A stretch of DNA of 35,488 nucleotides from a virus (Duplodnaviria > Caudoviricetes). Location: the IMG/VR virus record IMGVR_UViG_3300005805_000241, positions 1 through 35,488 of that record; one strand, written 5' to 3'. The notes beneath the pieces were generated by a model that was given only the letters and a program-made list of their open reading frames with translations, had not been told where the DNA came from and made no database searches. Of this stretch, positions 1-4,121 are shown one piece after another. The position numbers and the translations under genes were made by a program. Every line of letters begins with the position of its first letter. Position 1 is the stretch's first letter.

Positions 1-27
1 TCAGTTCACCACACCACTCCGATGAAC
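1..27 (+). repeat. Leader/start repeat, copy 1 (TCAGTTCACCACACCACTCCGATGAAC)
   Basis: Identical 27-mer at 911-937; both copies contain the ATG of a different gene. Confidence 0.95.
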
Positions 28-910: not shown

Positions 911-937
911 TCAGTTCACCACACCACTCCGATGAAC
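911..937 (+). repeat. Leader/start repeat, copy 2
   Basis: Identical to 1-27. Confidence 0.95.
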
Positions 938-1717: not shown

Positions 1718-1843
1718 ATGTTCGGTCGTTGGATTCACAAAGACGGCAAATCACGCCCTGATCGTAGATTCAAAAACGTAAAATCACAAGCAAAGACTAA
1801 CGGAGCAAAGAAAGCAGCAAACACAAGAAAGAAGAAGAAATAA
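1718..1843 (+). CDS. Very basic small protein, 41 aa (not in ORF track)
   Basis: GAGG at 1707-1710, 7 nt before ATG; MFGRWIHKDGKSRPDRRFKNVKSQAKTNGAKKAANTRKKKK. Confidence 0.65.
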   Translation: MFGRWIHKDGKSRPDRRFKNVKSQAKTNGAKKAANTRKKKK

Positions 1844-1847
1844 TTCT

Positions 1848-1957
1848 TGATTCTTTATACTTACCACTGAGTATAAAGAATCACTCAGGATTGAATGTAA
1901 TTTATTGTCAGTGGTGTGGTTTATTCTTTACATTCAGTCCTGTCTAATTCTTTATAC
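1848..1957. ncRNA. Candidate structured RNA/DNA element: two long hairpins with complementary loops
   Basis: Stem1 1848-1861/1870-1883 (14 bp, perfect); stem2 1886-1900/1928-1942 (15 bp, one G-U); loop1 TACCACTG complementary to CAGTGGTG (1909-1916) in loop2. Confidence 0.55.
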
Positions 1958-2028: not shown

Positions 2029-2055
2029 ATGGGGGTCAACCACACACCTGACACC

Positions 2056-2267: not shown

Positions 2268-2326
2268 TGGTACAATTAAGGGGCATCCGACAGGGTGCCC
2301 TGTTCACACCACACCACACCCGACCC
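2268..2326 (+). promoter_or_regulatory. Extended -10 + stem-loop + C/A-rich leader (PeSL-like junction)
   Basis: TGG-TACAAT (2268-2276), hairpin GGGCATCC-GACA-GGGTGCCC (2281-2300), then GTTCACACCACACCACACCCGACCC-ATG. Confidence 0.65.
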
Positions 2327-3362: not shown

Positions 3363-4121
3363 ATGGCTAAAGGATTCACCGTAAAGGCAAAAGCGCCTGC
3401 CGTAACTAATTCTACTATTGAGTGGGATTATGATGCTGCAAAAGAAATGGTTAGGGGTAAATCAATTGTATTTTGTTTACCTGGAAGAAATGTTTCATAT
3501 ATTTTCTTGAAGAATTTTGTACAACTTTGTTTTGATCTTGTGCAAGCAGGGGCAAGTATTCAAATTTCTCAAGATTATTCATCAATGGTAAACTTTGCAC
3601 GTTGTAAGTGTTTAGGTGCCAATGTTCTTCGTGGACCAGATCAAGTACCTTGGGATGGTAAATTAAATTATGATTGGCAACTTTGGATTGATTCTGATAT
3701 TGTTTTCAATTCAAATTCATTTTGGCAATTAGTTTTAATGGAGAAGGATATTGCCGCTGGTTGGTATTGTACTGAGGATGGTCAAACAACTTCAGTAGCA
3801 CACTGGTTAGAGGAGGATGATTTTCGTAGTAATGGTGGAGTGATGAATCATGAGACCATTGAAACAATTTCAAAGCGTAAGAAACCATTTACAGTTGATT
3901 ACACTGGATTTGGTTGGTTACTAATTAAGAAAGGAGTTTTCGAACATTCTGAAATGAAGTATCCTTGGTTTGCTCCCAAGATGCAAGTATTTGAATCTGG
4001 TGATGTACAGGATATGTGCGGAGAAGATGTGAGTTTCTGTTTGGATGCAAAGGAAGCAGGTTTTGAAATTTGGTGTGATCCTCGTATTAGAGTTGGACAC
4101 GAAAAGACAAGAATTATTTGA
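3363..4121 (+). CDS. GT-A fold (GT2-like) glycosyltransferase-like conserved cyanophage protein
   Basis: 252 aa; LWIDSDIVF (DxD), DIAAGWY, VDYTGFGWLLIKKGVFE, GEDVSFC, IWCDPRIRVGHEK. Confidence 0.75.
   Translation: MAKGFTVKAKAPAVTNSTIEWDYDAAKEMVRGKSIVFCLPGRNVSYIFLKNFVQLCFDLVQAGASIQISQDYSSMVNFARCKCLGANVLRGPDQVPWDGKLNYDWQLWIDSDIVFNSNSFWQLVLMEKDIAAGWYCTEDGQTTSVAHWLEEDDFRSNGGVMNHETIETISKRKKPFTVDYTGFGWLLIKKGVFEHSEMKYPWFAPKMQVFESGDVQDMCGEDVSFCLDAKEAGFEIWCDPRIRVGHEKTRII

Follow-up and report, generated by a model that had tools for sequence, protein, structure and literature searches.

A conserved, uncatalogued hairpin of T4-like cyanophages with a loop complementary to the leaders of neighboring genes

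The window, a virus record of 35,488 nucleotides (35.5 kb; IMGVR_UViG_3300005805_000241) from a T4-like cyanophage, contains a long hairpin that belongs to an uncatalogued family, probably of RNAs, with good covariation and suitable for Rfam. The conserved partner of the large loop of this hairpin is an element outside of the hairpin itself, in the leaders of neighboring genes, a relationship that was absent from an earlier note on the same DNA. Based on the sequence comparisons described below, we give about even chances to the hypothesis that the long hairpin is a trans-acting antisense RNA that would use its loop as a seed to pair with these leaders and would thereby block translation of what are probably early mRNAs. 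If true, this would provide a concrete mechanism, with named seed and target bases, for ending early gene expression. In the literature that was searched, we found no description of this hairpin, nor of a lytic phage that regulates several of its own genes through a small RNA.

Bases 1–2900 of the window form a GC-rich island (45–49% GC versus about 30%) that is filled with small genes of uncharacterized function with sigma-70-like -10 boxes, and baseplate wedge genes are encoded downstream of this region. The gene at position 3363 exhibits 86.5% identity to its counterpart in Synechococcus phage S-SRM01. The anatomy of the island suggests that its small genes are probably early genes. The hairpin occupies an AT-rich patch inside the island and begins a few bases past a stop codon. 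Neither of the two small open reading frames (ORFs) directly upstream has a PHROG family, and the second of these is missing from many homologous loci. The window opens with one copy of a 27-nt exact repeat (1–27 and 911–937) that comprises a leader and a start codon, possibly because the assembly broke there or because two cassettes recombined.

The earlier note described adjacent stems of 14 and 15 bp, a first loop complementary to part of the second loop, and a downstream repeat copy that competes with stem 1 for a pairing partner, yielding two mutually exclusive folds. Each of these features was recovered at its reported position in the window (Table 1). The suggestion that the element is structured on the + strand, and probably is an RNA, was likewise upheld. 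The + strand fold has a predicted energy of -42.1 kcal/mol (z = -5.7), with none of 200 shuffled sequences equally stable, and the z value for the - strand fold is -3.65. In addition, 18 distinct inner stems comprise 253 Watson-Crick (WC) pairs, 13 G-U pairs, no A-C pairs, and 4 other combinations (the misaligned row of locus L205 excluded), while the whole structure of the close variants features 8 G-U and 3 A-C types, with the latter in the outer stem. Because G-U pairs outnumber A-C pairs, a single-stranded form of the + strand, either RNA or DNA, is favored. The combination of stem 1 and stem 2 is predicted to be slightly more stable in the window (-35.0 kcal/mol) than that of the outer stem and stem 2 (-31.9 kcal/mol). 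An A-rich repeat precedes the stem and a U-rich repeat comes after it; the latter (1947–1957) resembles the tails behind terminator-like hairpins at about 715–727 and 2701–2711.

Table 1. Coordinates of the hairpin, its component parts, and its predicted target leaders in the window.
Feature	Position	Strand	Description
Predicted target, leader of ORF 22–690	8–18	+	11 perfect pairs, -23.9 kcal/mol
Predicted target, leader of ORF 932–1192	918–928	+	11 perfect pairs (-23.9 kcal/mol); 0.4 kcal/mol to open
Two small ORFs	1553–1708, 1718–1843	+	Directly upstream of hairpin
Stem 1 5' arm and loop 1	1848–1869	+	Found in 20 of 33 contexts, 7 of them with a complementary loop
Stem 1	1848–1861 with 1870–1883	+	14 WC pairs
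TAnnnT hexamer, putative -10 box	1856–1861	+	Within stem 1 5' arm; AT-rich DNA
Loop 1	1862–1869	+	8 nt; pairs with 1909–1916 by 7 WC and 1 U-G
Conserved long hairpin, family core	1871–1957	+	Outer and inner stem with a small internal loop between them, capped by a 27-nt loop
Stem 2 (inner stem)	1886–1900 (5' arm) with 1928–1942 (3' arm)	+	14 WC and 1 U-G; covaries across subfamilies
Loop 2	1901–1927	+	27 nt; G/U-rich near-invariant core at about 1907–1921 is the predicted seed, antisense to gene leaders
U-rich 3' repeat copy	1947–1957	+	Pairs with 1871–1881 by 11 WC; mutually exclusive with stem 1
Predicted target, leader of ORF 2056–2265	2038–2053	+	8 perfect pairs and further ones (-24.8 kcal/mol); 5.4 kcal/mol to open
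Predicted target, leader of ORF 2327–2671	2308–2317	+	10 perfect pairs, -20.2 kcal/mol

Homologs of the element were identified using patterns that were blind to one or both loops. A pattern for stem 1 that ignored the loop identified 27 stretches, 19 of which were true homologs; all 19 kept the loop 2 core, and loop 1 differed in 10. A pattern for the 5' arm of stem 2 that was blind to both loops returned 66 matches, including 48 true homologs from 33 distinct contexts. The loop 2 core was retained in 46 of these 48 homologs. Among the 33 contexts, 13 were without the 5' arm of stem 1, 13 had stem 1 with a non-complementary loop, and only 7 had the loop match, including two loop variants that still pair. 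The TAnnnT hexamer was identified at its position in 17 of the 20 contexts with stem 1. Loop 1 varies freely, whereas loop 2 does not. These observations do not bear out a kissing loop as the defining feature of the element, as had been proposed, and no two-sided change indicative of loop-loop covariation was seen. Across the family, the loop complementarity is not conserved, an outcome that the earlier note had itself named as refuting its model, although it is kept in a subgroup that includes the window. Of the two mutually exclusive folds, the long hairpin that had been considered the alternative is the conserved one, and stem 1 with its kissing match is a side feature of one subgroup, where at most it might mask the seed.

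The conserved long hairpin was evaluated in close and in diverse variants. In 29 close variants, 97.3% of alignment cells were paired and 5 of 29 pairs exhibited two-sided changes. In 30 diverse variants, 97.1% were paired and 9 of 17 inner pairs exhibited two-sided changes, compared to 31–43% paired in slid controls; a shuffle test for these variants was inflated by relatedness, a problem that does not affect the slide control. Searching with the leaders brought in subfamilies with different stem sequences, and the loop core was held in subfamilies with changed stems, including locus L205 with its wholly different stem. Overall, about 53 hairpin variants were identified (54 distinct members of 97 nt passed the filter, one of which is probably false), supporting a conserved element, which the earlier note took to be undescribed. 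Each locus has one antisense copy, beside the leader cluster, and two large contigs each have a single hairpin locus. The number of flanking repeats ranges from 1 to 9 or more, and the A-rich 5' arm is absent in one subfamily. Tandem arrays of the U-rich repeat, with up to 9 copies within 400 nt, were observed downstream of the hairpin in several homologs (e.g., L012 and L033).

A repeat finder identified complementarity between 1889–1921 and three segments of the window (8–18, 918–949, and 2038–2053). Near-matches to the complement of a 10-mer from the loop were counted in all loci; of 113 distinct ones, 100 lie no more than 25 nt upstream of a start codon, as a rule with a -10-like box on one side and the ATG on the other. 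Leaders of this kind also made up most of the strongest predicted duplexes of the loop, and in most loci the duplex ends at or covers the start codon. In 24 distinct loci that were identified solely through the hairpin, 66 perfect antisense 9-mers were at starts and 14 elsewhere, with start regions accounting for 18% of the positions counted. In comparison, 300 shuffled loops in the same loci yielded 1.2 (maximum of 5) at starts and 4.6 (maximum of 13) elsewhere. Same-sense 9-mer matches numbered 0 at starts and 3 elsewhere, and each of the 24 loci had at least one antisense 9-mer. In the window, four of the eight small-gene starts are predicted to pair with the loop at -20 to -25 kcal/mol and the other four at -11 to -13 kcal/mol. 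The 18 downstream starts, mostly in the structural region, are predicted to pair at -5 to -14 kcal/mol, and -20 kcal/mol was reached by 1% of background windows. The predicted cost of opening the seed is about 2 kcal/mol. Several leaders (e.g., 2031–2055 in the window) form small stem-loops that show the C/A-rich motif in their loop, and loop-loop initiation of pairing would therefore be possible.

The association also held when searching with the leaders alone. Of the 28 loci with two or more leaders at start codons and 4 kb of downstream sequence, 27 carry the hairpin. This search returned 45 distinct contexts, and the 17 that were left out represented chance matches or were too short, 5 of these having the hairpin. 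Loops paired no better with the leaders of their own locus than did foreign loops (p = 0.13; 40 leader sets and 19 loops), a comparison with little power given the near-invariant core. Counts of leaders in two whole-genome contigs were not above the control; the reversed control pattern is nearly the same motif, and the comparison is hence uninformative.

The sole exception among the 28 loci (L191) and the genome of cultured phage S-SRM01 carry leaders without the hairpin; the leaders of S-SRM01 are similar to those described here, and it has no match to the hairpin models. Because of these two relatives, we consider the hairpin to be dispensable and the leader to have a job of its own. In both, a reverse-oriented HNH endonuclease gene occupies the place of the hairpin (about 1.6–2.0 kb after the first leader in L191; L080:21022–21459 in S-SRM01). 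As a post hoc observation, the loop's 8-mer core is still found on the antisense (+) strand of the HNH gene, where it falls in codons for L-I-T-P-Q; this could be due to chance or could represent a retained seed.

No Rfam model matched the window at gathering score, and a search of 1400–2400 gave only weak sub-gathering matches of a hairpin type. This agrees with the earlier note, which did not recognize the element as a glnA, wcaG, manA, or PhotoRC RNA; none of the Rfam models of these RNAs matched it. The model of the c4 antisense RNA was absent at gathering score as well as among Rfam matches with E ≤ 10. A BLAST search of 1700–2000 against cultured phages returned no record that covers the hairpin, and hairpin models detected no credible member in eight cultured cyanophages (S-SRM01, P-SSM2, S-SM2, DSL-LC03, S-SKS1, B23, ACG-2014f, and S-T4). 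The best model match (B23, E = 0.014) was a terminator-like hairpin with a short loop and was rejected as a member. A de novo search of the syntenic regions of these eight genomes for long hairpins with anti-leader loops also detected none. Phages ACG-2014f and S-SKS1 have repeated leaders of their own without an exact antisense copy. In ACG-2014f, a different leader of 12 nt occurs 13 times in a small-gene island (37014–55222), with no exact antisense copy genome-wide. A search of a genome collection with the phage speD gene kept 80 loci, none of them from a cyanobacterial host. In the available part of the material accompanying Fremin et al. (2023; PMC10690425), supplementary files 3–6 did not yield a match to the hairpin, although the family may be among the alignment candidates of that study.

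Nine runs recorded as RNA hold part of the stretch. Contigs from RNA runs (8 of the 20 listed runs were examined) covered the hairpin in most cases and ran on into its flanks, carrying no information on strand, ends, or level. RNA-library contigs with the hairpin were identified in three of four runs of one set, and depth at the bin containing the hairpin was recorded in four of four runs of another; one RNA run (X6) had no contig. The bias toward G-U pairs favors the + strand as the one that would be expressed.

According to the proposed mechanism, the hairpin would be transcribed as the 3' end of the transcript of the two upstream small ORFs or from the putative -10 box within stem 1. The long stem would stabilize the RNA and lead to its delayed build-up. 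The unpaired G/U-rich loop would then pair in the cell with the C/A-rich leaders that adjoin start codons, which would block ribosome loading and turn down the probably early genes together. In function, such an RNA would stand in for RegB of phage T4, by which early mRNAs are inactivated in the regions where translation initiates. Co-transcription from an early promoter would need an extra assumption on timing, and pairing could stabilize mRNAs instead of repressing them. A further-reaching version of this hypothesis is that a lytic T4-like phage ends its own early regulon with one RNA, in which the loop of a stable hairpin reads a leader barcode shared by early mRNAs and which constitutes both an RNA-only replacement of RegB and the early-to-middle switch that cyanophages are missing. 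In this version, one subgroup would also mask the seed until processing, through a kissing loop with an upstream hairpin that imitates the target. We advance this version tentatively and consider it more doubtful than not.

Several bacterial small RNAs provide a precedent for pairing of this type. In RNAIII and RsaE of Staphylococcus aureus and RepG of Helicobacter pylori, an unpaired C/U-rich loop pairs with the G-rich 5' leaders of several mRNAs. As in those RNAs, an unpaired loop motif faces a motif common to several mRNA leaders, but the polarity is reversed here (G/U-rich loop and C/A-rich leader) and the targets are genes of the encoding virus itself. The c4 RNA of phages P1 and P7 is described, in the available text of PMC12197685, as a separately located antisense RNA whose loop complementarity near a ribosome-binding site blocks translation. 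Both c4 and the hairpin are phage-encoded with complementary loop sequences, and the action proposed for the hairpin is similar. However, as far as that text describes it, c4 acts on one antirepressor mRNA in a temperate phage, while the hairpin has one loop that matches a leader common to several genes of a T4-like phage. The hairpin belongs to no Rfam family and yet, if it acts at all, would work like c4 and the loop-seeded small RNAs.

Phage T4 itself uses proteins for a comparable task. RegB inactivates early mRNAs at initiation regions by cutting GGAG, and RegA binds AU-rich operators (from the portion of PMC3014915 available). Like the role proposed for the hairpin, each involves one trans-acting factor and a short motif in many early mRNA initiation regions; in contrast, RegB and RegA are proteins, and the candidate described here is an RNA with a C/A-rich motif as its target. 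A search of four related records for RegB gave no match, nor did the controls. T4-like cyanophages feature early, middle, and late phases without the middle-promoter machinery of T4, according to the accessible part of PMC5780444. The repeated promoter-plus-leader units of the small-gene island resemble the promoter-early stem-loops (PeSL) of T4-type phages, which are characterized in excerpts of PMC2839356 as multi-copy promoter/terminator cassettes. The hairpin differs from PeSL so described in that it occurs once and bears the complement of what is repeated. Catalogued cyanophage RNAs include wcaG, manA, glnA, PhotoRC-II, abiF, and CfrI (PMC2864571 and PMC12197685, as available in part). 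As proposed for the hairpin, these are non-coding RNAs from T4-like cyanophages that are either structured or antisense, but in the text available they comprise 5' UTR motifs or a cis-antisense RNA at psbA, and the hairpin has no match in Rfam.

Other explanations of the hairpin and its loop were also considered. An unlikely one, in our estimate, is that the hairpin is a cis element that ends the small-gene operon, as a two-way terminator or as an RNase III-type processing or stability stem, with its loop derived from an inverted copy of a leader cassette and kept for another reason, for example to bind a protein that recognizes the leaders as well (a minus-strand or DNA decoy). This would be in keeping with the A-rich repeat that precedes the stem and the U-rich repeat that follows it and resembles the tails of terminator-like hairpins in the window, with the position just past a stop codon, with leaders that occur without the hairpin, and with the lack of a loop-leader co-evolution signal. 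However, intrinsic terminators have a short GC-rich stem, a loop of 3–8 nt, and a U tract, whereas the loop here is 27 nt (27–30 nt in the family), though the tail is U-rich. A terminator scan detected none on the + strand for the long hairpin and scored only stem 1, on the - strand, and a terminator would give no reason for an invariant loop. A decoy is opposed by the excess of G-U over A-C pairs, which favors the antisense (+) strand and not the decoy strand. The same complementarity data could also be read as protection or activation, with pairing keeping nucleases away from mRNA 5' ends or unfolding stem-loops in the leaders. Some leaders fold on themselves (note the opening cost for the ORF 2056 leader), such that pairing could remodel them. 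Yet pairing at a start codon normally blocks binding of the 30S subunit, and in most loci the strongest duplexes reach or overlap the start codon; we consider this reading quite unlikely.

Very unlikely, in our view, is that the element functions as single-stranded DNA, forming a hairpin or a cruciform where replication starts or recombination takes place, with the repeats serving as iterons that bind a protein while the loop anneals to leader DNA or to early transcripts that act as primers. Inward-facing repeat arrays in some homologs, the single copy per genome in two large contigs, the AT-rich patch within a GC-rich island, and the replacement by an HNH gene in two relatives would all suit such an element, as would G-T wobble, which is also compatible with single-stranded DNA. 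On the other hand, the repeat number is variable, one subfamily does without the A-rich arm, the complementarity is confined to transcribed leaders beside start codons, and relatives manage without the hairpin. That the function lies in a kissing-loop or pseudoknot switch between the two-stem fold and the long hairpin, as the earlier note had it, is highly improbable. The loop match is real and unlikely to have arisen by chance (the frequency with which random 8-mers pair as completely with loop 2 is 0.0024), the two-stem fold is the more stable in the window, and the seven contexts that keep the match include two with pairing loop variants. Nevertheless, stem 1 or the match is absent in 26 of 33 contexts, the variation is on the side of loop 1 and not loop 2, and the resemblance of loop 1 to the leader motif common nearby is a simple source of the match. 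Finally, the loop could be a sponge for the host small RNA Yfr1, which has an ultraconserved, unpaired C/A-rich 11-mer (PMC2190773, available in part) and thus a motif similar in composition to the leaders and partially complementary to the loop. Pairing with Yfr1 would involve 6–7 WC pairs at -10.6 to -11.8 kcal/mol (based on eight distinct trxA-linked copies, seven of them low-GC and none from the true host), versus 8–11 pairs at -20 to -25 kcal/mol with the phage leaders, and we regard a sponge as hardly probable at all.

Several minor features of the region were also observed. The A-rich repeat was considered as a T4 late promoter, but it differs from the consensus of such promoters, whereas consensus boxes precede structural genes. 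Repeats similar to the U-rich one are present in DSL-LC03 in reverse orientation, without this hairpin. A near-palindromic 17-nt repeat occurs in two tandem copies at 1498–1531, and S-SRM01, P-SSM2, and other relatives have a cluster of related repeats at the corresponding location; these are possible protein-binding sites or a possible origin. ORF-poor units behind terminator-like hairpins at about 720–900 and 2700–2800 resemble units in S-SRM01 and DSL-LC03. Lastly, the 86-amino acid protein encoded by ORF 932–1192, which has no PHROG family, is conserved across most loci, where its gene invariably follows a strong leader match, and resembles a helix-turn-helix regulator as judged by eye only.
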